57,849 nt of DNA from positions 1 to 57,849 of the forward strand of contig JBBSBF010000004.1 in the NCBI GenBank assembly GCA_038251535.1. Direction: 5' to 3'. Positions 192-35,414 of this stretch are shown here, in pieces (position 1 is the first letter of the stretch; the number at the start of each line of letters is the position of its first letter). The notes beneath the pieces were generated by a model. It was given only the letters and a program-made list of their open reading frames with translations. It made no database searches and was not told the DNA's origin. Position numbers and translations under genes: made by a program. The stretch is from Minisyncoccia bacterium. GTDB lineage: Bacteria; Patescibacteriota; Minisyncoccia; Phycocordibacterales; UBA9973.

Positions 192-638
192 ATGAAAGTA
201 TTGTTATTACAATCAGTAAAAAATGTTGGGCTAAAAAACGAAGTTGTTGAAGTTGCGCCTGGCTATGCAGCTCACGCATTGTTTCCGAAAAAACTCGCAA
301 TCCCTGCAACTGATGAAGCAGTACAAAAGGTAGAACGTACCAAAAAAAATAAAGCAGCACAAAAACAGATTCACCAAACACTGCTACACAGTGCCATCGC
401 CCAGTTGACTGCTGCGACCGTGATGATGCCAGTGAAAGCAAACGAACAAGGAAACCTCTTTTCCAAACTTTCTTCTACGGACATCACACATTTCTTGCAA
501 GAAAAATACCGTTTGGATATCGATCCTGCCTGTATCCATATGCCAGGAGATTCTATCAAGAAACTCGGAGCGCATACGATCACCGTAATAGATGGAGATT
601 TTCAAGATACGTTTAGTATCGTGTTGGTAGCAGCGTAG
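192..638 (+). CDS. rplI: 50S ribosomal protein L9
   Basis: MKVLLLQSVKNVG...EVAPGYA N-domain and IKKLG C-domain; 148 aa. Confidence 0.95.
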   Translation: MKVLLLQSVKNVGLKNEVVEVAPGYAAHALFPKKLAIPATDEAVQKVERTKKNKAAQKQIHQTLLHSAIAQLTAATVMMPVKANEQGNLFSKLSSTDITHFLQEKYRLDIDPACIHMPGDSIKKLGAHTITVIDGDFQDTFSIVLVAA

Positions 639-642
639 CTGC

Positions 643-927
643 TTATCCGCGATCGGTAGTGATGTTTGCTACTTTGCGAAGTGTTTTGGTACCATCAAAG
701 TTTTGCTTGCGCTTTTGCGCAAATGAGACAAAACCTTCTTTGAGTGCAAACAATGTGTGGTCTTTGCCAATACCGACAGATGTTCCTGCGAGTATTTTAG
801 TACCTCGTTGGCGAACGATAATAGCGCCTGCTGTCGCAAACTGACCATCGTAGAGCTTGGTACCGAGATATTGAGGATTGGAATCAGTAAGGTTTTTTGC
901 TGCCCCCTGAGCTTTCTTATGTGCCAT
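643..927 (-). CDS. rpmA: 50S ribosomal protein L27
   Basis: MAHKKAQG...IIVRQRGTK...GKDHTLFAL. Confidence 0.97.
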
Positions 928-1003
928 AGACGTACATAATAACTGAAGGCATAGACAATGTCAATCCAATAGGGAACAAGCTATATATAGGTTATAATAG
1001 ATT

Positions 1004-1369
1004 ATGGGTGCGTTTTTCTCCCGAAATTATAGGATATTTTTCCTCGTACTACTTGCGAGTATTGCCGGATTGTCTTTTTATGTTGGAATGTTGGAAGGGA
1101 AACAATCAAAAGGGGATAGCGTGATACTTGCTTGTAGCGACAATGTCTTGTCATCTCTCCAGATTCCAACTTCGACTAGAAACGACGTTGCTCCTATTGC
1201 CACAACTTCGACAGTACAACAAAAGGGAACGTACGCTGGTTCAAAAAATGGCACCAAGTACTACACCCCCGACTGTGCCGGATTAAAAAAAATAAAGCCA
1301 GAAAACATCATCTGGTTTCAAAGTGTCGAGGATGCTACGCTGCAAGGATATAGCGCCGCAAACTGTTAA
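1004..1369 (+). CDS. Membrane-anchored protein with C-terminal Ada metal-binding-like domain
   Basis: N-terminal TM helix; C-terminal YAGSKNGTKYYTPDC...IKPENIIWFQSVEDATLQGY matches the Ada Zn-binding-like pattern. Confidence 0.65.
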   Translation: MGAFFSRNYRIFFLVLLASIAGLSFYVGMLEGKQSKGDSVILACSDNVLSSLQIPTSTRNDVAPIATTSTVQQKGTYAGSKNGTKYYTPDCAGLKKIKPENIIWFQSVEDATLQGYSAANC

Positions 1370-1389
1370 TATGTTCACTTACTATCTCT

Positions 1390-2364
1390 ATGTATAAATT
1401 TTTAAGCAACATCTTCATAGGGCTCACCATTTCAATGTTGATATTTGTGCTCGTTTTTCCGACTAAGGCGAACAATGTTGCAGAGAATTTCTTTTCAAAT
1501 CTGAAAAGGTCGACCGCTGCACCCGAGCTCCTTCCAGGCCAAACGAGTGACAACTCCAAATCTTTACTCTCACCATCAAGTACACTGCGAACTATCAAGC
1601 CGTTTCGCGCTATAGAGCCAGGCGGATCCACTATCGATACCACCGATAGTACTTCACTGGGCAACAACAATAAAAGCGCCACACTTTCTACAAACAACAT
1701 TATCGATGCAACAAATCAAGAACGCATAAAGGTAGGACTGCCTCCGCTCAAAATAAACCAACAACTCATCACCTCTGCTGGCTACAAAACAGCGGATATG
1801 ATTCAAAAGCAATACTTTGAACATACATCACCATCAGGAATCACTGTCTCAGATCTCGCTCAAAAGGCAGGGTATAGCTATATCATCATGGGAGAAAACC
1901 TTGCACTTGGAGACTTCATCGATGGCAATGATGTCGTGGCTGCATGGATGAACAGTCCAGGTCATCGAGCAAATATTTTGAATACTCACTATACAGAGAT
2001 CGGTGTCTCTGCAGCTAAAGCAAACTATCAGGGTAGAGAAGTGTGGTTTGCTGTACAGCACTTTGGAACACCGCGAAGTGTCTGTCCGTACATCGATCAA
2101 AATCTCAAAACTGCAATCGATACAATCAACGACAACCTCAAACAACGTCAAGCACAAATCGCAAATGAAAAAGCGTTACTAGAAACACCAAACCATTCAC
2201 AAAGCGATGAATATAAAAATGCAGTTAATGAATTCAACAAATTGGTTTCCGAATACAACACGGCGCTGGTCATCTCGCAGGACAAGATCAAAGAATACAA
2301 CATACAAGTATCAGCCTTCAATCAGTGCCTTTTGCAGTACCAAACAGTGGCAGAGAAGGGGTAA
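1390..2364 (+). CDS. CAP (SCP/Tpx-1) domain protein with C-terminal coiled coil
   Basis: TNQER...YFEH...GENLA...WMNSPGHRANIL...VQHFG motifs; N-terminal TM/signal. Confidence 0.9.
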   Translation: MYKFLSNIFIGLTISMLIFVLVFPTKANNVAENFFSNLKRSTAAPELLPGQTSDNSKSLLSPSSTLRTIKPFRAIEPGGSTIDTTDSTSLGNNNKSATLSTNNIIDATNQERIKVGLPPLKINQQLITSAGYKTADMIQKQYFEHTSPSGITVSDLAQKAGYSYIIMGENLALGDFIDGNDVVAAWMNSPGHRANILNTHYTEIGVSAAKANYQGREVWFAVQHFGTPRSVCPYIDQNLKTAIDTINDNLKQRQAQIANEKALLETPNHSQSDEYKNAVNEFNKLVSEYNTALVISQDKIKEYNIQVSAFNQCLLQYQTVAEKG

Positions 2365-2477
2365 TCCCAACATAGTAACAACGTCGCACAATATATCTTT
2401 TACGACACTATATAGGGAGAATGCCAGCTAAAGCTTTAAGTCACTCCCCTTAAGTATTCTTTAAATAGAACTGTGGT

Positions 2478-2520
2478 AAAAATAAAAGGCCCCACCTAGG
2501 AATAGGTGCAGCCTTATTTT
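2478..2520 (-). terminator. Intrinsic terminator-like hairpin (possibly bidirectional)
   Basis: Imperfect stem GGC..CACCTA/TAGGTG..GCC flanked by A- and T-runs. Confidence 0.5.
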
Positions 2521-2631
2521 CCAATATCCTAATGAAAAAAACTATCTCATTCCACTTATTCTATATCAAAAGCAACCTTTTTACAATCCTTAAGATTTAT
2601 TACTATAAATTACACAAATTAATTAAAAAAT

Positions 2632-2665
2632 AAAAAACAGCACCTGTGGACACAGGCACTGCTTT
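2632..2665 (-). terminator. Intrinsic terminator-like hairpin
   Basis: Minus strand GCAGTGCCTGTGTCCACAGGTGCTG followed by a T-run. Confidence 0.55.
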
Positions 2666-2735
2666 CCTTAACGACTCAGAGACTGAGTTATATTAAGGGA
2701 CCCCAAAAAATAATATTATTTATACTCTAGCACAA

Positions 2736-3011
2736 CTAATCTTCTACACAAGTCCCACCCACATCTCCAAATGGCAAATGTGAGCCCGCAGTTGGTGCAC
2801 AATGAAATCCTACGGCACAGATGGCCGCAGTGCTCATGTTGCCTCCACAGTGTTCTCCAAGTCCTACCGTTGATTTTGTATCGGTAGATTGAGTTGTTTC
2901 TTCTGGAGTTGGCTCCACAACACTAGGTTGATGACCCCATAGTAACCATCCCACAACAAGTCCGATCACAAGAAAAGTAATGTTTTTTATGTATCCAGTA
3001 TTATGTTGCAT
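2736..3011 (-). CDS. Small membrane-anchored protein with 4-Cys extracellular motif
   Basis: TM helix, T/P/E linker, then GEHCGG...C..G..C...GGTC; TTGACT-17-TACGAT promoter immediately upstream. Confidence 0.75.
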   Translation of the reverse strand: MQHNTGYIKNITFLVIGLVVGWLLWGHQPSVVEPTPEETTQSTDTKSTVGLGEHCGGNMSTAAICAVGFHCAPTAGSHLPFGDVGGTCVED

Positions 3012-3059
3012 ACAACAATCGTACCGCTCGCCGTTTTTGAAGTCAACTATTTTTATATT

Positions 3060-3092
3060 AAAAAAACGAGCATCCCCAAAAGGTGCTCGTTT
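3060..3092 (-). terminator. Intrinsic terminator
   Basis: AAACGAGCA/TGCTCGTTT stem with a T-run on the minus strand. Confidence 0.6.
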
Positions 3093-3231
3093 ACACTCGA
3101 ATTCTTTACACCTTTTTAATTTTAAAGCACGTTACATTTCCTCATTTCCTTACGGTTTTTACCCATGAGATTTTAGTGAAAAAATAACTTTGATTTTAAA
3201 TATAGCACGAGGATGCTCGCAGCTCAAGTTT

Positions 3232-4185
3232 TTATTGAAACACCTTTGCGAGGATAGTTTTGATATCTGAGATCGGGATTGCAAAGGCGATGCTGTTTGC
3301 GCCTTCCGTTACTGCAACGTTAACTCCGATTGCCGCACCATCGAGGTTGAGTAATGGACCACCAGAATTTCCAGGATTGATCGCAGTATCTGTTTGGATA
3401 ATTCCCTTCAATGTTTCAACATTGCCAGTACCATCCCTTGCCTGGATCGTACGATCAAGCCCTGAGATAATACCGACCGATACTGAGTTGCTGTACTCCC
3501 CTAGTGCGTTCCCTATTGCAGCTACCGTTTGACCAAGTTTGATCGTTGATGAGTCTCCGAGTGCAATCGTTGGATACCCCGAGCCGTCGATGCGAAGAAC
3601 GGCAATGTCTTTCTCTGGATCGCGATAGATGACGGTTGCAACCTTTTTTCCACCGGAGGCAAGTAGGATCGTGTATTCGGCACCTGGGGTGTCGACGACG
3701 TGTTTGTTCGTAATGATATAACCATCAGATCGGATGAAAAATCCTGTTCCTGCACCGATTTGTTTCTTTTGAGTTCCGACTTGTTCGTATTTTGGAACGC
3801 GGATCGAGACGCCATTAAAGTTGGGGTCGTTTCCAAATGGATTTACATACTGCACTTTCAACAACGGTACATCTTTTGAAATAACGATCGAAACTACCGC
3901 AGGAGCTGTCTTGGCAACTGTCGACGTGAGCAAATCATCTTGTGACTGTGCGATCACGTTTGCGCGATTTGATAACTCCTTGATCTGTTGAGCAGCTTCG
4001 CTCGTGACTACGCCCGATTGTTCGAGAGCTGTTCGCATTTGCTCAAGCTGTGTCTCGAGTGTGTTGATTCGAGTGACGGTCTCATGGCGTTCTTTGCGAT
4101 AGATGTAGACACCGTAGCCGACTCCACCGATGGCGAGGAGACACAGTACCATAGCTAACTTTAGTTTATCCGATGCGGAATACAT
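3232..4185 (-). CDS. HtrA/DegP-like trypsin serine protease, no PDZ domain
   Basis: GTGF, TNKHVV, DIAVL and TDTAINPGNSGGPL catalytic motifs; N-terminal TM and coiled coil. Confidence 0.92.
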   Translation of the reverse strand: MYSASDKLKLAMVLCLLAIGGVGYGVYIYRKERHETVTRINTLETQLEQMRTALEQSGVVTSEAAQQIKELSNRANVIAQSQDDLLTSTVAKTAPAVVSIVISKDVPLLKVQYVNPFGNDPNFNGVSIRVPKYEQVGTQKKQIGAGTGFFIRSDGYIITNKHVVDTPGAEYTILLASGGKKVATVIYRDPEKDIAVLRIDGSGYPTIALGDSSTIKLGQTVAAIGNALGEYSNSVSVGIISGLDRTIQARDGTGNVETLKGIIQTDTAINPGNSGGPLLNLDGAAIGVNVAVTEGANSIAFAIPISDIKTILAKVFQ

Positions 4186-6229: not shown

Positions 6230-7153
6230 ATGAGGAAAACTAATCCGTACAAAAAATACGTACTCTTTTTTGTCGTGCTTCTCGGAGTAGGTTTGGGTGT
6301 GTATATGTGGAACCAACCAAAAAAGTTTGTTGATACAAAACATTTTTCAGAAGAAAAACCACCAACAACACCTGTATTGATACCCGATACGCCGAAGCCA
6401 CCAGCTGCCTCGTATAGATCTATCACTATTCAAACACTTAAACCTGGCGCCGAAATCGCCAAAGAAGTTGGGTTAGAAAATCTACCCCTTGTTTTGGCGT
6501 TCAATCGCCTCGATGTGAGACATATTCAAACCGGTGTCATATTGACTATCCCCAAAACCCTAGATGATTGGAGTGCACTTTCACCATTTCCAACTGAACT
6601 TGCAGTTGCTGAAGCCATACCCAAATTGATGTTGATATCTCAGCGAGTACAGGCGTTTGCAATCTATGAAAATGGGAAACAAATACGATGGGGTCCCGTA
6701 AGTAGCGGCAAAAAAGATACCCCGACGCCGAGTAAACTGTATTCGACCAACTGGAAAGGCAAACTAGTCACGAGCAGCCTTGAAGGAGCATATCTGTTGC
6801 CGTGGGCGTTTAACCTTGATAGCACCGAAGGCATATCGATGCACCAATTTGACCTTCCAGGATATCCGGCTAGTCATGCGTGTGTGCGAATGCTCGAAGC
6901 GGATGCAGAATGGATATATAACTGGGCAGATCAATGGATCCTTTCTCCCGACGGAAACACAGAGATAGCTTCCGGTACACCAGTGATTATCTTTGGGCAA
7001 TATGCATTTGGCAAAACTGCTCCGTGGAAAAAGCTCCCCACTGATGCAACCGCCTCCACCGTTACGACTGATGAATTAACAGAAGTAATTACTCCGGAAC
7101 TTCAGACAATTAAGGCGAAGCAAGATGAACGCGCTACAATTATTCATTCATAA
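6230..7153 (+). CDS. L,D-transpeptidase (YkuD family)
   Basis: GPVSSG..TPTP and MHQFDLPGYPASHACVRM catalytic His/Cys motif. Confidence 0.92.
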   Translation: MRKTNPYKKYVLFFVVLLGVGLGVYMWNQPKKFVDTKHFSEEKPPTTPVLIPDTPKPPAASYRSITIQTLKPGAEIAKEVGLENLPLVLAFNRLDVRHIQTGVILTIPKTLDDWSALSPFPTELAVAEAIPKLMLISQRVQAFAIYENGKQIRWGPVSSGKKDTPTPSKLYSTNWKGKLVTSSLEGAYLLPWAFNLDSTEGISMHQFDLPGYPASHACVRMLEADAEWIYNWADQWILSPDGNTEIASGTPVIIFGQYAFGKTAPWKKLPTDATASTVTTDELTEVITPELQTIKAKQDERATIIHS

Positions 7154-27880: not shown

Positions 27881-29269
27881 ATGTCACTACATCTATACAA
27901 TACAAAATCTCGATCGGTTGAAGAATTTACACCGCTTCATAACAACACTGTGACGATGTACGCCTGTGGTCCCACTGTCTATGATTTCACCCATATCGGA
28001 CATATACGCAAATACATCAACGACGACATATTGAAAAGAACGCTTTTGATGCTCGGTTACGATGTTACCCATGTTATGAACATTACCGATGTTGGTCACC
28101 TTACCGGAGACACCGACGAAAGTGGCGAAGATAAGCTGGAAAAAGGAGCGAAACGTGAAAACCGCTCAGTATGGGAAATCGCAAGCTTTTATAGTGACTA
28201 TTTTCATCAAACGATGCGCGCAGTCAATGTGCTCCCCCCAACACACGAACCAAAGGCAACTGACCATGTACCGACCATGGTTGCCCTCATCGAGAAACTT
28301 TTGGAAAATGGCTTTGCGTATGAGACACCACATGCTATTTATTTTGACACAACAAAAGATCCCTCATACGGAATGCTTTCAGGTCAAAAACTTTCTGAAA
28401 AAGAAGTTGCGGTGCGTGATGACGTCGTCATAGATCCGGATAAGCGACATCCAGCGGACTTTTCGCTTTGGTTCAAACGAGTTGGGAAATTTGCCGATCA
28501 TGTCATGTACTGGGACTCTCCTAAAGGTATACAGGGGGATGGGTTCCCTGGATGGCACATCGAGTGCTCTGCAATGAGCATGGAATATCTCGGAGAGACT
28601 ATGGACATCCATACGGGAGGTATCGATCACATACCCGTTCATCACGAAAACGAGATCGCGCAGAGCGAATGCGCTACCGGAAAAGAATTTGCTCGCTTCT
28701 GGGTTCATTATGAATTCTTGACCGTGAACGGTGTAAAAATGTCTAAAAGTTTGCAAAATTTTTATACACTCGACGATATCGCCGTGCGTCAGATTGACCC
28801 TCTCGCAATGCGAATGCTCGTGATGCAAACGCACTATCGCAAGTCGATCAACTTCACCTGGGAGAGTCTCAAGTCTGCAAATCTTCTCGTCAAAAAGCTG
28901 CAACGATTTGCATCGCACCAGAGTACTGTTGGTACAGCGGTATCCTCGTATATCACGTCATTTACGGATGCGCTCTGTGAAGATCTCAACACTGCCCGAG
29001 CACTGGCCGTACTGTGGGAGCTATATAACGATACCGATATATCTGATAGAGACAAATGGACAACAATGCTCGCATTTGATGAAGTGCTTGGATTTGATCT
29101 AAAAGCAGTAACGTCGTTTATTATTTCTCCTGAAGCGACCGCACTATTGGAAGAACGTTCGATCGCCCGCAAAAACAAAGATTTTGCAACCTCTGATCGA
29201 TTGCGAGTATCACTCGAAGGATTGGGTTACGAAGTCCTCGACACCGCCGAAGGTACTACGCTATATTGA
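27881..29269 (+). CDS. cysS: Cysteine--tRNA ligase
   Basis: [37 protein letters not shown]. Confidence 0.97.
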
Positions 29270-30166
29270 TACCTCCTTGGTACCGATTGCAGGCAACAAT
29301 ACGGTGAACGCTGAACCTTTGTTTATCCCAGCTGATTCAACGAGAACAGTGCCCTTGTGCGCAAGAACAATTTGTTTGGCGAGATAGAGACCCAATCCAG
29401 AACCTCCAGTATTTACTTTCGCACCTTCTCCACGACTAAACTTTTCAAACAGTTTAGATTTTGTTTCAGTAGATATGCCAATACCGTTGTCGATGACACG
29501 AAAAACAACAGCCGTCCCTTCCCGAACGAGAGAAATTTCAACCTTGCCACCCTTTTGAGTGTACTTTATGCTGTTGTCAGTCAAGTTCAAAAATACCTGC
29601 TTTATCTTGGTTGCATCTGCCTGCACCATAAAATTATCATACGGAGATACATTTTTTGTAAACGATATACCTTTTGTTTGTGCAGGAATTTGCATTTCAT
29701 CAAACAGTCCTGAAACGATAGTCGATAGGTCAGTTGCTTGGAATTCATATTTCATACCTCCCTGCTCAATTTTTGAAACGTTCAATAGATCCTCGACGAT
29801 ATTGATCAACCCTTGGGCCGAGTTGTAGATGCGCTTGACTGATTCGTCGACTTTGTTATCAAGTGTGCCATATGACCCTTCGAGTAACATCGATGAGTAC
29901 CCTTTGATTGCCGTGAGTGGGCTTCTGAGCTGGTGAGATGCGAGGGACAAAAACTCGGTCTTTAGTTGATCCAGACTTTTCAGTTTGTCATTAGCAATTT
30001 CGAGGTTAAGGTTGGTCTCTTCAAGACGCAGCCTGAGTTCCGACAATTTTTTGTTTAGTTTTACCACCTCCAAATTTTGTTTGTAGAGTTCTTCTGTCGC
30101 TTTTTGAAATTCTTCAACAGGAACTTCGTTTAGATTATTTGGTTTGCTCTTTTTCGTAAAAAACAT
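29261..30166 (-). CDS. Soluble histidine kinase (coiled coil + HisKA + HATPase), no TM sensor
   Basis: ASHQLRSPL H-box, NLTDNSIKY N-box, DNGIG, GSGLGL. Confidence 0.93.
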   Translation of the reverse strand: MFFTKKSKPNNLNEVPVEEFQKATEELYKQNLEVVKLNKKLSELRLRLEETNLNLEIANDKLKSLDQLKTEFLSLASHQLRSPLTAIKGYSSMLLEGSYGTLDNKVDESVKRIYNSAQGLINIVEDLLNVSKIEQGGMKYEFQATDLSTIVSGLFDEMQIPAQTKGISFTKNVSPYDNFMVQADATKIKQVFLNLTDNSIKYTQKGGKVEISLVREGTAVVFRVIDNGIGISTETKSKLFEKFSRGEGAKVNTGGSGLGLYLAKQIVLAHKGTVLVESAGINKGSAFTVLLPAIGTKEVSI

Positions 30167-30167
30167 A

Positions 30168-30473
30168 TCACACGAGACTCGATGGGACCTGATCAGCAGG
30201 TAGATTCTTCACCAAATCTTTCGCAGCTTCTTTGCAAACTTCATGCGAGGCTCTTCCAAATAAACGTTCATACTGGGCAACCAGTTGATTGATGGTTGTT
30301 TTTGGATCGCCGCTAAAAGAGACAATTCCTTGTTTACTATCAGTAATATTTAACCCGCTTACCTTACCTGCTTCCACCCATGCGACTGGCCCAATAATAA
30401 ATGCTTGTTCTCTGATTATTTGCAGGGAAATTTGATTGAAGATATTTGGAGTATTTTTTGTGATGTTATCCAT
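30168..30473 (-). CDS. Small helical protein between sensor and kinase
   Basis: 101 aa, IIREQAFIIGPVA...LVAQYERLFG; 1 nt from the kinase start and 5 nt from the sensor stop. Confidence 0.75.
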   Translation of the reverse strand: MDNITKNTPNIFNQISLQIIREQAFIIGPVAWVEAGKVSGLNITDSKQGIVSFSGDPKTTINQLVAQYERLFGRASHEVCKEAAKDLVKNLPADQVPSSLV

Positions 30474-30478
30474 AAAGG

Positions 30479-31342
30479 TTATTTTTCAACATCATTGCTT
30501 GGTAATATAAAATCCGCCGCTCCCATACTTATGGTAAACATCATGGTTAAGTATAGGAAATCAGATATATGGCCATTAAAATACGTACCATTAGTCGTGG
30601 TGAATAAGAAAATAAAATCCGCAATATAGTTGAGCAAAAATCCAAATAGTAAAATTATAATTGTTTTTTTATACCGACCACCCAAGTAATTGTATGAGAG
30701 AATATACACAAGCAGAGCAGAGAGAAGGATAACAATATCCCCTATTGGATAGAATAGATTTAAAATAAACTGTGGTATCGAAACGCCGACTTCAATTATC
30801 CCACCCTTTGCCAACACAAAAAGTAAATAGTATGACAATACAATACTAGCGAGTGCAGCGAGTGCAGCGACTATTTTTCGATTTACATTCTTAAGACCAT
30901 ATTTTGTCCCTGCAGCTACTGATAGCTTTATCATACTATATGTCCACAGAGGCCATATAGTTATATAAAATAGGTCAGCCAAAGAAGGGAATGGGACTTC
31001 GACCTTCGAAAAAAATAAGTAGTAGTTCCAGACGATCATTCCTCCCGCCCATCCCAGAAGTCCAAGCCCTAAAAAATTGAGCGCCTTTCCAATTGCACTA
31101 CCCCACCCACCCCATTGTTTAGCTTTGTAGAAGCACAATAGACAACCAAGGATTGGTAAAAGAGTCATTCCAATAAGAAAAGGGGTAAGGACAAGATGAT
31201 AGAGTGGTCCTTCATAAGAACCTAGATTTTTAGTATAGATAATAAACACAAACCAGAGAACAGCAGAAATAGTATATATTCCTACTATTAATTTTTTTAA
31301 CATATTGATTTTATGTTGCTCCTTATCCATTTTTTTTAGCAC
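30479..31342 (-). CDS. Stand-alone multi-TM membrane sensor-like protein
   Basis: About 7-8 TMs; PFPSLADLFY, LFYPIGD and IADF motifs resemble membrane domains usually fused to GGDEF/kinase domains. True start may be MDKEQ at 31330. Confidence 0.7.
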   Translation of the reverse strand: MLKKMDKEQHKINMLKKLIVGIYTISAVLWFVFIIYTKNLGSYEGPLYHLVLTPFLIGMTLLPILGCLLCFYKAKQWGGWGSAIGKALNFLGLGLLGWAGGMIVWNYYLFFSKVEVPFPSLADLFYITIWPLWTYSMIKLSVAAGTKYGLKNVNRKIVAALAALASIVLSYYLLFVLAKGGIIEVGVSIPQFILNLFYPIGDIVILLSALLVYILSYNYLGGRYKKTIIILLFGFLLNYIADFIFLFTTTNGTYFNGHISDFLYLTMMFTISMGAADFILPSNDVEK

Positions 31343-32090
31343 TTAAAACGAGTAAACTTTTAATACCGTCTTTTTCCCATTGGGGGGACGGTATAATTTT
31401 AACATCAATAGTTTCTTTTGGGAAACCGTGTTTTCCCAAAATTGTATAAAAATCTGCCTCATTTACGTTGGCACTTGGAAAGGTACGTTTTCCAACTTTA
31501 TATGATTTTGTGTCCCTTAGGGCAGAAATGATAAGCCACCCCCCTGGTTCAACTAAACCACAGAGGTTTTTCATAGCGGTTTTCCATTTCAATTTTGAAT
31601 GCGTAATAGAATCGATACAATAAAAAGAAGTGACTAGAGGAAATTGGGCTTTCGTTATACCTATTGGAAGAGTATCAAAAATATTGCAAGTTAGTAACTT
31701 TTTTATTTTATTTTTAAATGATTCAATTCTTTCATTAAAATCCTTGTCTGTCTTTAGACCTTCAATATTAAGGATATGACGTATCTGATCGTCCCAATTG
31801 TGGATAGTACTTCCTTCAGCAATCCATTTTTTGATTTCCTGCAAGTTTGCTGATACATAATCTGCCAGATACACATCTTCTACATATGGAACAAAAGGAA
31901 TTGCTCGATGAATAGTCGGACCGCAGCCTATATCAATCACACTTTTGAACATCCTATTTTGTTTTTTAAGAAACCTAGTAATAAATCTAAAAAGATGGAC
32001 TTCATCCGAAGGTAACCGTTCTAATAGATAATAGTGTTCTAGATAGTCAACTGGTTTCCATTTTTCAAATACATTAACCATACGATGCAA
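31323..32090 (-). CDS. NNMT/PNMT/TEMT family SAM-dependent N-methyltransferase
   Basis: DYLEHYY, IDIGCGPTIH, LADY...NLQEIKKW, NWD, LVEPGGWL, YKVG..TF. Confidence 0.88.
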   Translation of the reverse strand: MHRMVNVFEKWKPVDYLEHYYLLERLPSDEVHLFRFITRFLKKQNRMFKSVIDIGCGPTIHRAIPFVPYVEDVYLADYVSANLQEIKKWIAEGSTIHNWDDQIRHILNIEGLKTDKDFNERIESFKNKIKKLLTCNIFDTLPIGITKAQFPLVTSFYCIDSITHSKLKWKTAMKNLCGLVEPGGWLIISALRDTKSYKVGKRTFPSANVNEADFYTILGKHGFPKETIDVKIIPSPQWEKDGIKSLLVLSAKKNG

Positions 32091-32091
32091 T

Positions 32092-32775
32092 TTACTTCTT
32101 CACAATCGGCGCAACAATAGTATTGTGTTTCCAATATAGGCAATCTTTTGGAGGTTTTACCTTGCAGACTTTGAAGGAAATATTTTTAAAACCGGCTTTT
32201 TTAAGCTCAGCTATATGTTTCTTTGAAAGCTTTATCGCTTCATCAGAAAAATAAGTAAAAATACCGTCGTCCTTCAACAATCTGGACGCCTCTTTAAAGA
32301 AAGGAAAAAATTGAAAAAATTCAACTTCTTTATCTAATGGACAAGAATCGAACAGAATTCCATCGAACGATTTGTTCGGAATTTTTTTTGTGGTATTTTC
32401 CCAAAAACCCTCCAATATTATGAATTTCTTAGATTTGATTTGTTTTAAAAATTTTTTCTTTGCATTGTCAATCATCATAGGATGACACTCTGCGACGGTA
32501 TGATTTTTTATTTTTTTTGAATCTTCTATAAAACCAGCCGAGATACCCATTCCAAATCCAACCTCAAGTATATTTCCACCTTGTGAAGTCGCAATTTTTG
32601 CCAACTCTTTCATATAAGTGGTTTCCCAAGACTGCATAATTTGATTAACGATCTCTTTCTTTCCCTTTTTAACCACCATCACTAGTTCTTGTTTATTTAA
32701 AGTTGGAATTGTTTCCAAATACTTTTCTTTTGTTTTTTTTGTGTATAAACCTGGTTTTTGCATAAAAGGGATCAA
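32092..32775 (-). CDS. Guanidinoacetate N-methyltransferase (GAMT/RMT2)-like methyltransferase
   Basis: IMQSWETTYM..LA...SQGGNILEVGFGMGISA, EC, GFWE, FDGILFDS.PL, RLLK..G.FTY parallel GAMT motifs. Confidence 0.88.
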   Translation of the reverse strand: MIPFMQKPGLYTKKTKEKYLETIPTLNKQELVMVVKKGKKEIVNQIMQSWETTYMKELAKIATSQGGNILEVGFGMGISAGFIEDSKKIKNHTVAECHPMMIDNAKKKFLKQIKSKKFIILEGFWENTTKKIPNKSFDGILFDSCPLDKEVEFFQFFPFFKEASRLLKDDGIFTYFSDEAIKLSKKHIAELKKAGFKNISFKVCKVKPPKDCLYWKHNTIVAPIVKK

Positions 32776-32840
32776 TCTGAACTTTTTTAATATTTATATG
32801 CTATTATAGTAGCGTAAGTTACTAAAAAAAACTAATATTT

Positions 32841-33182
32841 GTGAATACCTATTTTGTACTGTTTGTAGTGGTAAGCCTAAGTGCTGTAACAGTCTTAGGA
32901 GATTACCTGATAAAGCTTTCTGGAAGTACTTCCAATAAATATATCGACTGGAAGTTATTTGTGATTGGACTTTGTACATATCTTATCACTTCTATAGGTT
33001 GGTTTTTTATTATGAAGCATATGAAACTATCAACCATAGGTGTAGTCTACGGTATAGCGACCGCTCTGTTTTTAGTAACAATCGGTGTTTTAAAGTTTAA
33101 AGAGACATTAAATGTATATGAAATTACGGGTATTTGTTTGGGCGTAATCGCACTAATCCTTTTGAGTAGATTTGCTGGATAA
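32841..33182 (+). CDS. SMR/DMT-family small 4-TM transporter
   Basis: 113 aa, four hydrophobic helices, LSTIG.VY and GVL.FKE.L motifs. Confidence 0.82.
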   Translation: MNTYFVLFVVVSLSAVTVLGDYLIKLSGSTSNKYIDWKLFVIGLCTYLITSIGWFFIMKHMKLSTIGVVYGIATALFLVTIGVLKFKETLNVYEITGICLGVIALILLSRFAG

Positions 33183-33191
33183 TATTATTCT

Positions 33192-33383
33192 CTAAGTTTC
33201 AAAAGCGTAAATAGTTGTGTCTCGTGAGATGCTTTGTTGAAAAAAAATTAAATAGATACTTGAAAATATAACCAGCGCTCCGATCGGATGACCTATTTTT
33301 TTGTTTTTTTCAACCAGATAACTGTCGGCTATATTTACCAACGACCATAAAATAACAGAAATCGAGCTGTACAGTACCCACAT
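33192..33383 (-). pseudogene. Truncated EamA/DMT transporter fragment
   Basis: MWVLYS...LWSLVNIADSYLV is an EamA-like N-terminus but the ORF ends after 63 aa. Confidence 0.55.
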
Positions 33384-33449
33384 ACAGTTATTATATCATA
33401 ACTATTTACATAGTGCCTGTTATGTGTAATAGTAAGGAAAATATCAACT

Positions 33450-33914
33450 ATGTACATATACGCTATATATATAATGCCTGAGTGGATTCGAATATTCGAA
33501 GCTATAATTGCTTGTATTTGTTATTTATTAATTTGCTGGATTATAATAGAATATAAAAATCAATCAGAAAAATCTATTATCAAAAATTCAAAAAAAATTA
33601 GTTTTATTTCAATTAAAAAAACACTTGATAAGTTACCAAAAATTCCCGTATTACATAAACAAGTAACACAGCGAAATTTTGGTCAAGAACTTTTGACTCT
33701 TTTGTCCAATACAAATATCAGCGCTCTTCCTCGACATCAACAAATCGTCGAAGTTAAGGTGATAATTAAAGCTTATTTAGCTTCAATAGATGATAAGGAC
33801 AAATATTTTTCAAATGTGATAGATTTGACTGAAATTGTTGTCCAAATGGATCATTTCTATAAATTTAATTATAACGGACAACTTAAAAAATGGAGTTACG
33901 AAATAAGAATTTAA
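33450..33914 (+). CDS. Hypothetical single-TM protein (AT-rich)
   Basis: ORF with N-terminal TM and a terminator-like hairpin after the stop; start uncertain. Confidence 0.6.
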   Translation: MYIYAIYIMPEWIRIFEAIIACICYLLICWIIIEYKNQSEKSIIKNSKKISFISIKKTLDKLPKIPVLHKQVTQRNFGQELLTLLSNTNISALPRHQQIVEVKVIIKAYLASIDDKDKYFSNVIDLTEIVVQMDHFYKFNYNGQLKKWSYEIRI

Positions 33915-33938
33915 ACTTTCACACCAGTGGAGGTTTTT

Positions 33939-35414
33939 TTATTCCCTTGGTTTCAATAGGGGGAATAGTTGTGTCTCACGGATTGGTTTGTCTACCATGA
34001 ACGCAAAGAGTCGTTCGCCAAATCCAAATCCACACGTCGGCGGCATGCCGTGTTCGAGCATTTCGACAAACTCCCATTCAGGCATCATCGCCTCATCATC
34101 TCCTCGTTCGATCAACTGTTGTTGTAGTTCAAAACGATTTCGCTGTTCGACTGGGTCGTTGAGCTCCGAAAATCCATTTCCTACTTCACTACCTGCAAGG
34201 AGTACTTGAAACCGCTCGGTAAGTCGAGGATCGTCATCACATGATTTCGCAAGCGGTGAGACAAGCTTTGGAATGCGGACAAGAAACGCTGGTCCTGAGA
34301 TAGTTTTGCGACAGTACTTCCATAGTGTGTCAGTGAGGCGCTCTTTGTTTGTTCCATCATATTTCACACCAAGTTCATCTAGTTTTGCAGTCATCGCTTC
34401 AGCAGTTGCGTCAAGGACATTGATGCCAGTTTGTTTTTGGATCTCTTCAACATAGTCGATCGTATCCCATTTTTTTGAGAGATCGATGATGTGGCCTCGA
34501 GTAGTAAAGACACCCGTGCCAAACACTTCTTGTGCAATAGTTCTATAGAGTCGTTCGACGAGCTTCATACCATCGTGATAGTTGGCGTACGCCCAATAAA
34601 ACTCCATGTTGGTAAACTCTTGAAGGTGGTCAGGGCTCGATCCTTCGTTTCTATACACGCGGCCGATCTCAAATGTCTTGGGAAATCCTGCTGCCATCAG
34701 TCGCTTTTGCCATAACTCCCCTACTGAAATACGTAGAAAGACATCGAGCGCAAAATCTTTATGCATTGTCTTGAATGGATTGGCCTCTGCACCTCCGGTC
34801 GTTACTTCGAGTGTGGGTGTTTCGACTTCCATAAATCCGCTCTCTTTGAGGAAGTTGCGGGTGACTTCCCAAAACTTTGCTTTCTTTTCAAACATCTCTC
34901 TTAATTCAGGATTGGTGAGGATATCGAGATATCGTTTGCGATACCGTTCGTCATCGTCAGTGAGGCCGTGCCATTTTTCAGGAAGCGGTAATAGAGATTT
35001 GGTAAGCATGTTCCAAGCAGACACAAAGAGTGCTTGTTCACCACGCTTCGTTGTGTACGCAATCCCTGTCGCTTCGACAAAGTCTCCAATATCAGTCGTC
35101 TCGTTCCAGAGAGCATAAGCATCGGCGTCCATTTCATCGCTTTTCAAAAACAGCTGCATCGTGCTGTCAGACCCGTTGGCACCACTTCCATCAAATATGT
35201 CTGCAAACGCAAGTCCGCCTTGTCCGCGTTTACTCATGATCCGCCCTGCGAGCGTGATCGAGTCTTTGCCTGTCTCATAGAGTGTAAATCTGTCTTTAAA
35301 GACTTCGATCGTGTCAGTGCGCTTTGTCTCTGCGGGATAAGGGTTGATACCTTTCTCTTCCAACAGAGCTTTCTTTTTCAGCCGTTCGTCGCGGAGTTCT
35401 GTAATGGATGCCAT
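33939..35414 (-). CDS. lysS: Lysine--tRNA ligase (class II)
   Basis: LPLPEKWHGL, RYRKRYLD, GGAEANPF, YRNEG, GMPPT.G.G.G. Confidence 0.97.
   Translation of the reverse strand: MASITELRDERLKKKALLEEKGINPYPAETKRTDTIEVFKDRFTLYETGKDSITLAGRIMSKRGQGGLAFADIFDGSGANGSDSTMQLFLKSDEMDADAYALWNETTDIGDFVEATGIAYTTKRGEQALFVSAWNMLTKSLLPLPEKWHGLTDDDERYRKRYLDILTNPELREMFEKKAKFWEVTRNFLKESGFMEVETPTLEVTTGGAEANPFKTMHKDFALDVFLRISVGELWQKRLMAAGFPKTFEIGRVYRNEGSSPDHLQEFTNMEFYWAYANYHDGMKLVERLYRTIAQEVFGTGVFTTRGHIIDLSKKWDTIDYVEEIQKQTGINVLDATAEAMTAKLDELGVKYDGTNKERLTDTLWKYCRKTISGPAFLVRIPKLVSPLAKSCDDDPRLTERFQVLLAGSEVGNGFSELNDPVEQRNRFELQQQLIERGDDEAMMPEWEFVEMLEHGMPPTCGFGFGERLFAFMVDKPIRETQLFPLLKPRE

Follow-up and report, generated by a model that had tools for sequence, protein, structure and literature searches.

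The stretch of DNA considered here, referred to as the window, comprises positions 1 to 57,849 (57,849 nucleotides, nt) of contig JBBSBF010000004.1 from a Minisyncoccia bacterium (Patescibacteria), and the system in question is a block of six genes located between cysS and lysS. Two of these genes encode methyltransferases that use S-adenosylmethionine (SAM), three encode a sensor kinase divided into separate proteins, and the last, on the opposite strand, encodes a small membrane protein. The block belongs to a recurrent Patescibacteria cassette of three slots: a small transporter, a variable enzyme of amine or SAM chemistry, and a three-gene split kinase. In the following, the GAMT-like methyltransferase is called MTA, the NNMT/PNMT-like methyltransferase MTB, the receptor-like protein with eight transmembrane helices (8-TM) simply TM, and the linker protein of 101 amino acids (aa) S101. 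Records are labelled L for loci, G for genomes and P for proteins; G000 is the window's own genome (697 kb in 35 contigs, 95% complete) and G014 is a congener. The genes of the block and their flanks are as follows.

27881-29269, plus strand: flanking cysS, GC content 0.454
29261..30166, minus strand: soluble histidine kinase, 301 aa, with coiled coil, HisKA and HATPase_c; probable transmitter of the split sensor
30168..30473, minus strand: S101 linker domain, 101 aa, a cytoplasmic domain of about 95 residues from an unnamed family; would bridge the TM receptor and the kinase
30479..31342, minus strand: 8-TM receptor-like membrane protein (TM), 287 aa, family unnamed; probable input of the split sensor
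31323..32090, minus strand: MTB, SAM-dependent N-methyltransferase of the NNMT/PNMT/TEMT family (PF01234), 255 aa
32092..32775, minus strand: MTA, GAMT-like class I SAM methyltransferase, 227 aa, with matches to GAMT structures
32776..32840, no strand: divergent intergenic gap between MTA and the 4-TM gene, 65 nt
32841..33182, plus strand: small 4-TM transporter-like protein resembling drug/metabolite transporters (DMT) and small multidrug resistance (SMR) proteins, 113 aa, with a conserved Asp in its first transmembrane helix (TM1)
33939-35414, minus strand: flanking lysS, GC content 0.469

The tight packing of the five minus-strand genes described in the initial annotation is reproduced in the list of open reading frames (ORFs): on passing from MTA to the kinase, the first two genes are 1 nt apart, the next pair overlaps by 20 nt, and the last two gaps measure 5 nt and 1 nt. 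The block had also been described as visibly more AT-rich than its flanks. This holds relative to cysS and lysS; the AT-rich stretch begins within the sensor genes, not from the kinase onward, as the GC content is 0.409 in the kinase and 0.405 in S101, followed by 0.356 in TM, 0.337 in MTB, 0.322 in MTA and 0.342 in the 4-TM gene (whole window 0.415). Between 28800 and 34200, 19 promoter-like sites were counted against 18.3 +/- 5.4 in shuffled sequence, and 6 terminator-like sites against 3.6 +/- 1.8. A search of Rfam over 29000-34200 (E up to 1) returned only four sub-threshold chance matches, with no guanidine or other riboswitch ahead of the 4-TM gene.

TM, S101 and the kinase are almost certainly the input, linker and transmitter of one split sensor kinase, judging from how the same domains are joined in other proteins. 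The kinase itself has the domains of a transmitter: it matches Pfam HisKA (5.1e-17) and HATPase_c (1e-26), has an N-terminal coiled coil and no transmembrane segment, and its phospho-histidine and N- and G-box residues (H78, N194, N198, D226, G228, G230, G257, G259) are invariant in 22 homologues. S101 and TM match nothing in Pfam or NCBIfam. Among longer proteins, the S101 profile gave 20 matches, ten of which were read: six are single chains of TM and S101 (P0001, P0003, P0004, P0006, P0012, P0018), three join S101 to the coiled-coil motif, HisKA and HATPase (P0015, P0016, P0020), and one further chain looks chimeric. In P0015, P0016 and P0233 the N-terminal motif of the kinase continues straight from S101. 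P0233 (796 aa) unites all the parts, with TM at 8-263, S101 at 266-359 (hhalign probability 99.4), GAF, HisKA and HATPase. The claim of a split histidine-kinase sensor, made earlier from the window alone, is thus borne out by single chains of TM with S101, of S101 with kinase, and of TM, S101, GAF and kinase that exist elsewhere. In complex prediction for TM, kinase and S101, with S101 as the partner, the score was 0.66; a control in which the kinase was replaced also reached 0.66, and replacement of the partner gave 0.00.

The S101 family comprises 73 sequences with 16 invariant columns, and the AlphaFold2 model of the window member (pLDDT 91.2) contains four helices and a hairpin. Assignment to a known fold was attempted and rejected, as the best Foldseek E value was 0.64 and the best VIA match was RbcX at Z 6.1 (root-mean-square deviation, rmsd, 5.4 over 76 residues). 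A relationship to the N-terminal part of H-NOX (VIA Z 5.0 and 4.6) was likewise not assigned.

The TM model (pLDDT 93.3) has 8 helices, and counts of Lys and Arg in the loops of 72 members place both termini and the even loops inside the cell. D123, D195, D242 and D261 are near-invariant in the family; by this topology, they would lie together with several aromatic residues in the outer half of the membrane and form an outward-facing pocket. Residues 40-287 resemble seven-helix (7TM) bundles with VIA Z scores of 9-11.9, below the caution level of about 13 for helical bundles (rmsd 3.4-5.8 over 156-224 aligned residues), and the best Foldseek E value of 0.053 is weak. In Pfam at E up to 0.1, the 72 members hit eight families with one member each, which is noise. 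In a protein atlas, high scores were obtained to unnamed clusters only; the nearest named families, HisKA_7TM, MASE3, MASE4 and 7TMR, follow at 0.78-0.79 and serve as a lead only.

A search of 1.84 billion representatives with the TM profile retrieved 5,998 proteins at E up to 0.001, so that the domain appears to be a widespread, unnamed membrane sensor domain. Architectures were examined in 35 of 150 listed proteins, picked for extra length. An NB-ARC/STAND NTPase precedes TM in nine of them (P0194, P0228, P0235, P0245, P0249, P0255, P0259, P0285, P0143), a winged helix-turn-helix (wHTH) domain of TrmB/MarR type precedes it in two (P0142, P0286), and a MazG-like domain follows it in one. A domain fused to three unrelated outputs, namely kinase, STAND NTPase and wHTH, behaves like an input for sensing and not like a transporter. 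In P0204, HisKA_7TM stands alongside the TM domain, and the two domains are therefore distinct. No fusion of an enzyme to TM was found among the 35 proteins scanned.

The organization of the cassette was studied starting from the sensor and, separately, from the enzymes. The S101-family scan, covering one genome per species and using a simple ORF caller and phmmer, found 86 relatives, and 80 loci were kept. In these, 73 S101 genes were called. TM immediately precedes 65 of them, and of the eight exceptions five stand at a contig start; the kinase lies directly downstream in 60 of the 73. Apart from TM, S101, the kinase and MTB, 31 neighbour clusters occur in at least three loci, and one representative was scanned from each of 30 of them, cluster 31 being left out. 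The gene just upstream of TM was counted in the 64 loci that have TM and at least two upstream ORFs. It is LPG_synthase_C in 31, a pyridoxal phosphate (PLP) dependent ornithine/arginine/diaminopimelate decarboxylase in 11, SET in five, carbamoyltransferase in four, NNMT-like in three, a TRM5-like methyltransferase in three, AdoMet decarboxylase in two, GAMT-like in one and another gene in four, counts which describe and do not test, as the enzyme classes were defined from the very loci in which they were counted. A transporter-like gene (EamA, a 198-aa membrane protein or a 4-TM protein of about 115 aa) occurs within four genes in 50 of the 64 loci.

The second member of this transporter slot, cluster tm198 (L057:2628-3224 and 13 further loci), is a membrane protein of about 198 aa that stands before a pyruvoyl arginine decarboxylase or SET and has no Pfam match at E up to 0.01. 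MetK lies within two genes upstream of EamA in the sister cassettes L035, L046 and L075. Two loci hold more than one sensor part: L025 has two TM genes, and G138:C2:185278-193310 has five S101 matches at four places (one apparently split) within 8 kb, which suggests adjoining sensor cassettes.

S101 and TM occur together in two of 60 relatives (36 of them congeners), G014 and G048, and MTB was found in none of these 60. The whole window set is also carried by L023 and L097, in which it is co-directional with overlapping stops and starts, in the order 4-TM gene, MTA, MTB, TM and S101; identity to the window is 67% for MTA, 45% for MTB, 53% for TM and 61% for S101. A metagenome scan with MTB yielded 38 loci. 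In all seven with at least 44% identity, TM is directly downstream, and S101 and the kinase come next where the contig continues; these seven represent about five independent cassettes (L097 and L098 repeat L023, and L099 and L100 are near-identical). At lower identity, L101 (34%) adjoins TM-S101 and L102 (35%) adjoins a kinase, and no sensor parts were seen in the other 29 loci, where the homologue is distant or the contig short. In an even sample of 400 phylum genomes, S101 is present in 40. MTA has homologues at E up to 1e-10 in five: the three close ones (50-72% identity) all adjoin TM-S101, two coming after a PLP decarboxylase and one after an AdoMet decarboxylase, and the two distant ones are not beside the sensor. 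PF01234 is found in 10 of the 400 genomes, nine over the cut-off. Its neighbours in these nine are TM (three), a 4-TM gene with a kinase (one), a response regulator (two, from one genus) and, in one case, a 4-TM gene directly before it; in the remaining two, none of TM, a 4-TM gene, kinase or regulator lies in the 1.5-kb flanks.

The initial annotation had proposed that the two methyltransferases, the SMR-type gene, the membrane sensor and the 101-aa protein belong together. Their co-occurrence recurs across genomes whether the neighbourhood is searched from the sensor or from the enzymes, and close homologues of the methyltransferases adjoin TM wherever the contig extends far enough. The pattern named in that annotation as a refutation, with sensor homologues always away from such methyltransferases, is not what is seen. 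An adjacency repeated in other lineages goes far beyond what chance would give.

The exchange of cassette parts was followed in trees from quick LG+G4 searches, for which SH-aLRT support only is given. The TM tree has 81 rows, made up of the window, eight sequences of metagenome loci and those TM ORFs of the 80 loci that are longer than about 250 aa. Its members group by enzyme class: 32 with LPG_synthase_C (support 98), 15 of the decarboxylase type (100) and 12 in the main group of the NNMT type (100). Enzyme-class labels change 15 times on this tree, against 45.4 in shuffles. The window TM falls in the NNMT-like clade as sister to the TM of L023 and L097 (support 99). As relatives share labels, the three trees were compared on identical loci. 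On the same 54 loci with all three genes, TM requires 8 label changes (minimum 6), S101 22 and the kinase 21, the latter with a shuffled mean of 24.3 on a tree of its last 235 residues; the size of this contrast is approximate, as the short S101 alignment may inflate its count. The receptor tree tracks enzyme class and the S101 and kinase trees do not; therefore receptor, enzyme and transporter swap as a unit. Near-identical kinase pairs are independent of the trees. L092 (4-TM, NNMT-like) and L093 (EamA, PLP decarboxylase) are 92% identical in the kinase and 100% in S101, against 43% in TM, and the window compared with G014, which has EamA and LPG_synthase_C at the syntenic site, shows 70% in the kinase, 49% in S101 and 33% in TM, with flanking genes at 60-84%. 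S101 and the kinase thus remain with the host lineage while the unit of receptor, enzyme and transporter travels. In both L092 and L093 a VanW gene follows the kinase.

At the lysS side of the block there are traces that fit such an exchange, and a further ORF.

33185..33237, minus strand: decayed copy of the lysS 3' end with its final codons and stop, a 53-nt direct repeat (D2) between the 4-TM gene and the EamA remnant; scar at the edge of the acquired block
33192..33383, minus strand: EamA gene N-terminal remnant, running into the lysS-like repeat; the intact gene in G014 would encode a 10-TM transporter
33450..33914, plus strand: ORF of 154 aa without assigned function in the island, GC content 0.262, with a hydrophobic N-terminus

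The segment 33185-33237 is 75% identical to 33939-33991, the 3' end of lysS itself; its translation ends in ETQLFTLLKLRE and the true lysS product in ETQLFPLLKPRE, each followed by a stop. The ORF at 33192-33383 is 70% identical over 46 residues to the start of an intact 310-aa EamA gene at the same site in G014. These remnants indicate that a unit of receptor, NNMT-like, GAMT-like and 4-TM genes replaced a unit of EamA, LPG-synthase-C and receptor between lysS and cysS. In the simplest reading, the donor segment carried the end of lysS, the 4-TM gene, MTA, MTB, TM and part or all of S101, and took the place of the resident TM, of LPG_synthase_C and of most of EamA. A donor like the L023/L097 lineage, whose loci have 31-32% GC, would fit the low GC content of the segment.

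The assignment of the first methyltransferase as GAMT-like holds. MTA matches solved GAMT chains at E 8.7e-30 (query 46-227 on chain 4-198), the next unrelated chain being at 0.0022. E51 and D143 align with E45 and D134 of GAMT, and both are invariant in 45 of 45 family members (the window, 40 of 120 listed database matches and four loci). In GAMT, Glu45 and Asp134 hold the guanidino group of the substrate. As far as the HMMER alignment indicates, MTA lacks a loop of 13 residues that GAMT has behind the strand ending in TY; in GAMT, this loop (Leu170/Thr171) binds the substrate carboxylate. After the position of the missing loop, MTA has an invariant S177-D178-E179 (45/45). Asp134 is described as the catalytic proton acceptor of GAMT (PMC12471008). 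In L021, L142 and L143, MTA stands alongside PLP decarboxylases of the ornithine/arginine family. P0126 (389 aa) joins two of the enzyme classes of the cassette slot, with a SET domain at 31-114 fused to a GAMT-like methyltransferase at 236-340. PF27704.1 is precomputed for all listed MTA relatives; the Pfam copy used here gave no such match for the window MTA.

The NNMT/PNMT-like identity of the second methyltransferase is equally secure. MTB scores 143.8 bits against Pfam NNMT_PNMT_TEMT (PF01234; cut-off 25, E 7.2e-42) over profile positions 12-261 of 261, and with solved chains of NNMT, INMT and PNMT its E values run from 1e-18 to 2e-23 (best NNMT, 1.8e-23), at low identity. Y16 aligns with Y20 of NNMT, and A190, invariant in 7 cassette homologues, stands at the position of D197. 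Tyr20 and Asp197 belong to the nicotinamide site of NNMT, and with Ala at the latter position MTB would therefore not be a nicotinamide enzyme. The best NCBIfam match is the equivalog GntF (NF041360), at 78.9 bits with a cut-off of 60. GntF is the enzyme predicted to N-methylate a cyclic guanidine derived from arginine (PMC10673588). The neighbours of MTB are the sensor kinase, the GAMT-like gene and the 4-TM gene, and no gnt cluster surrounds it, although no search aimed at other gnt genes was made.

For the divergent gene, the initial annotation was right about the position and too firm about the family. The 4-TM ORF does lie 65 nt from MTA, or 77 nt from the database start of P0021 (223 aa). 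It has the size and topology of an SMR protein, with 113 aa, four transmembrane helices counted from sequence and an acidic residue in TM1. However, it matches no SMR model: there is no Pfam SMR match at E up to 0.01, EamA is reached at 24.8 bits, under the cut-off of 28.2 (E 2.9e-5), and NCBIfam EbrB, whose cut-off is 160 bits, at 17.3 bits (E 0.0057). No sequence match was found in the PDB at E up to 10. By eye, a G-D motif in the first hydrophobic stretch is common to the window protein, that of L023 and five smr119 members. The protein is best described as a putative transporter, a 4-TM protein of drug/metabolite-transporter type that is SMR-like at superfamily level only. Its association with the cassette is recurrent, as a homologue (5e-28) stands co-directionally ahead of MTA-MTB-TM in L023, L097 and L098. 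Related 4-TM genes precede MTB or SET in L092, L049 and L149 and flank MTB in L147 and L154.

In G000, 95% complete as stated, no ornithine/arginine decarboxylase, pyruvoyl arginine decarboxylase or AdoMet decarboxylase was found, nor was the SAM synthetase MetK (PF02773), despite the SAM-dependent enzymes encoded. The amine, and perhaps SAM, would therefore be imported. As to the output of the kinase, receivers flank the cassette in 7 of the 80 loci and in L141 and L143. Two of these were scanned (143 and 159 aa) and consist of a receiver domain only; the rest of the cluster is mostly 123-159 aa. G000 has three receivers and three HisKA-type kinases, of which two pairs are adjacent, leaving the kinase of the cassette and a receiver of 137 aa. 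The latter is the only G000 receiver without an adjoining kinase, and it lies between PilB/GspE-like (467 aa) and PilT-like (352 aa) ATPases in the stretch L134 (G000:C25), 396-3294. G014 repeats the pattern of three receivers and three kinases, and an orphan receiver of the same type is present in G006 and G016, both of which are without the sensor. In BLAST, the 137-aa receiver is 27-36% identical to cassette-linked receivers, and another receiver is equally so. It is consequently a weak candidate for the partner of the cassette kinase.

Among described systems, the nearest logic appears to be that of a signal synthase co-encoded with its receptor kinase, and also that of decarboxylase/antiporter modules with a membrane sensor. 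The trait that marks synthase/receptor-kinase pairs is present here, as the enzyme gene adjoins the receptor and varies with it. CqsA/CqsS and LuxM/LuxN place a synthase beside a kinase with a multi-helix membrane ligand site, and the pair co-varies; they differ in enzymes and chemistry and use single hybrid kinases, whereas the receptor is a separate, swappable gene here. Modules of the cadC-cadBA type hold transporter, decarboxylase and membrane sensor together in the manner of the sister cassettes, although the window has methyltransferases and a two-component kinase in place of a ToxR-like one-component regulator. HisKA_7TM, MASE3, MASE4 and 7TMR are similarly multi-helix inputs without a large outside domain that serve several output types, but the 72 TM members have no Pfam match beyond scattered single ones. 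At the level of the enzymes, MTA resembles GAMT over the whole catalytic domain and keeps the acid pair, while departing from it in the absent loop, the S-D-E residues and a bacterial context beside decarboxylases and a sensor; MTB shares with NNMT/PNMT/INMT and GntF the PF01234 membership, the Tyr20 equivalent and a score over the GntF cut-off, and differs in Ala190.

The layout had been thought to have no described counterpart. This is true in part only, since Ralstonia PhcB is a SAM methyltransferase co-encoded with the histidine kinase PhcS, which is reported to sense its product (PMC8578825, PMC11960443). The likeness is one of layout: the PhcB product is a fatty-acid methyl ester, whereas the window enzymes belong to N-methyltransferase families, and PhcS is a single chain, whereas the window has a three-gene sensor with an unnamed 8-TM input, an unnamed linker and an adjoining small transporter. 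New features are an 8-TM input and an S101 linker that both lack a name, the division of the sensor over three genes, its association with amine enzymes and small transporters, and the exchange of input units against a resident transmitter. No publication on GAMT-like, NNMT-like or polyamine genes or on this sensor in Patescibacteria or the candidate phyla radiation (CPR) was found, supplements being outside the search, and a text search of a CPR methyltransferase preprint (10.64898/2026.07.13.738296) for relevant terms gave no match.

To account for these observations together, a cassette with a sensed guanidino-amine is proposed as the best overall explanation, in which about even confidence is placed. 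In this mechanism, an amine would arrive from outside the cell, and both methyltransferases would N-methylate it, the GAMT-like enzyme on the guanidino group and the NNMT/GntF-like enzyme on the amine. The substrate would be a cationic guanidino-amine, most plausibly agmatine or a related compound derived from arginine or polyamines. Passage of the compound through the membrane would depend on the 4-TM protein, and the receptor's outward pocket of conserved Asp and aromatic residues would bind the amine, the methylated product being a likelier ligand than the precursor. The signal would pass via S101 to the kinase, which would phosphorylate an unlinked single-domain receiver, with an output that is probably not direct transcription control. 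The parts of this proposal differ in strength. That enzymes, transporter and receptor form one functional unit is quite probable. A guanidino-amine such as agmatine is pointed to because of the GAMT acid pair, the GntF match and the arginine decarboxylases in sister cassettes, and the case for a guanidino- or polyamine-type substrate is evenly balanced. The sensing of product, not precursor, is suggested tentatively.

Several points weigh against the proposal. Besides the possibly inflated S101 count and the descriptive nature of the enzyme classes mentioned above, the related genomes are not independent and include near-duplicates (L023/L097/L098, L099/L100 and L043/L044). MTB-TM pairs also exist without nearby S101 and kinase (L095), or without the kinase (L097). 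The GAMT-like enzyme occurs with differing receptor clades and would therefore be an add-on, not the receptor's own partner. In the window TM, residue 195, one of the four pocket Asp and D in 70 of 72 members, is N, and residue 118, Y in 71 of 72, is F, which could reflect an altered choice of ligand or a relaxation of constraint. The cassette of this genome has no linked response regulator, and the cassette-linked receivers lack an output domain, which argues against direct transcription control. The need for imported amine and SAM fits uptake and modification as well as synthesis and export. SET, TRM5/PrmA-like and GAMT/Rmt2-like enzymes can be protein methyltransferases.

The same evidence can be arranged in other ways. 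The circuit suggested in the initial annotation, in which an N-methylated signal is made, exported by the 4-TM protein and read outside by the receptor for quorum or epibiont-to-host purposes, agrees with a receptor clade that tracks enzyme class, as expected of synthase/receptor pairs, with the PhcB/PhcS analogue of a methyltransferase synthase, and with a conserved transporter slot and an outward-facing acidic pocket. However, the genome has no precursor-making genes or MetK that could be found, the 4-TM gene is only a putative transporter of either direction that SMR models do not match, there is no linked transcription regulator, and nothing points to density dependence, so that this strict form is possible but rather unlikely. 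Somewhat less probable still is the reverse flow, in which an external host amine is sensed, taken up by the 4-TM protein and then detoxified, trapped or converted by methylation, with charge or pH homeostasis as one conceivable purpose. In its favour, the genome lacks amine-making routes, and sister cassettes pair EamA with a PLP decarboxylase and tm198 with a pyruvoyl arginine decarboxylase, pairings that resemble cadBA/adiAC logic; yet methylation brings no obvious energetic or pH gain, and the receptor-clade evidence suits product sensing equally. An extension of the proposed mechanism, speculative and improbable as a whole, is that of private chemical channels. Each cassette would combine an enzyme for a cationic amine (decarboxylated, aminoacylated or N-methylated), an exporter and a tuned 8-TM receptor on an interchangeable S101-kinase, the input units being traded, and the signal of the window, e.g. 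methylagmatine, would serve cell-to-cell or epibiont-to-host use, possibly steering type IV pili via the single-domain receiver.

The remaining alternatives change the role of single components. If TM were itself a transporter or the enzymes' membrane partner (a trigger-transporter), S101 and the kinase would monitor its activity. The MTB-TM pair of L095 could be understood in this way, the conserved membrane Asp could serve cation or proton transport, and 7TM folds include transporters; the same domain, however, behaves as a sensor input when fused to kinase, STAND NTPase and wHTH outputs, and 50 of 64 cassettes have a transporter-like gene besides TM, which makes this role doubtful. It is more doubtful that the methyltransferases modify signalling proteins or the envelope, as adaptation or charge change, instead of a diffusible molecule. 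SET and TRM5/PrmA-like genes do fill the same slot, P0126 fuses SET to a GAMT-like domain, relatives of GAMT include protein arginine methyltransferase, and LPG_synthase_C acts on lipids in MprF. Nevertheless, the same slots also hold PLP, pyruvoyl arginine and AdoMet decarboxylases and MetK, all of which act on small molecules, as the NNMT/PNMT family is known to do, and the conserved transporter slot would be left unexplained. The absence of any functional link, with the methyltransferases as cargo of an AT-rich island beside an unrelated sensor, is already disfavoured and is the most improbable case. The block is indeed foreign to the genus (MTB in none of the 60 relatives), low in GC and bounded by scars, and the region from lysS to the sensor is variable in G014 too. 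The same adjacency, however, is found in distant lineages from both search directions, and the receptor seems to have arrived with the enzymes, given the identities of TM and kinase to G014 and the receptor clades that track enzyme classes.

The proposed cassette matters because there is almost no knowledge of what ultra-small Patescibacteria, in their life on or with other cells, are able to sense. For this phylum, two unnamed domains would be gained, a linker and a membrane sensor of a large family (5,998 cluster representatives), together with a rule that can be tested at the bench, namely that the receptor gene is packaged with enzyme and transporter for one amine type and that species exchange this package but keep the kinase. 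Should the receptors read products or substrates of the linked enzymes, each cassette names a candidate ligand, and de-orphaning becomes feasible. If the proposal is true, amines (agmatine, polyamines and their methylated forms) would be a currency between these bacteria and their hosts. Bacterial relatives of GAMT and NNMT/PNMT, which are best known from animals, are moreover placed in a defined context that can guide substrate discovery.

Two minor observations concern the island next to lysS. The 154-aa ORF at 33450-33914 has no Pfam or NCBIfam match and no homologue among the fetched loci. In L013 (G014:C45), antisense ORFs at about 1476-1724 and 6532-6786 share a long near-identical peptide, as judged by eye, and the first overlaps the 3' end of lysS. 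G014 thus also seems to carry a second copy of the lysS end, bounding a different island with an AAA ATPase, a nucleotidyltransferase-like gene and a class I methyltransferase.

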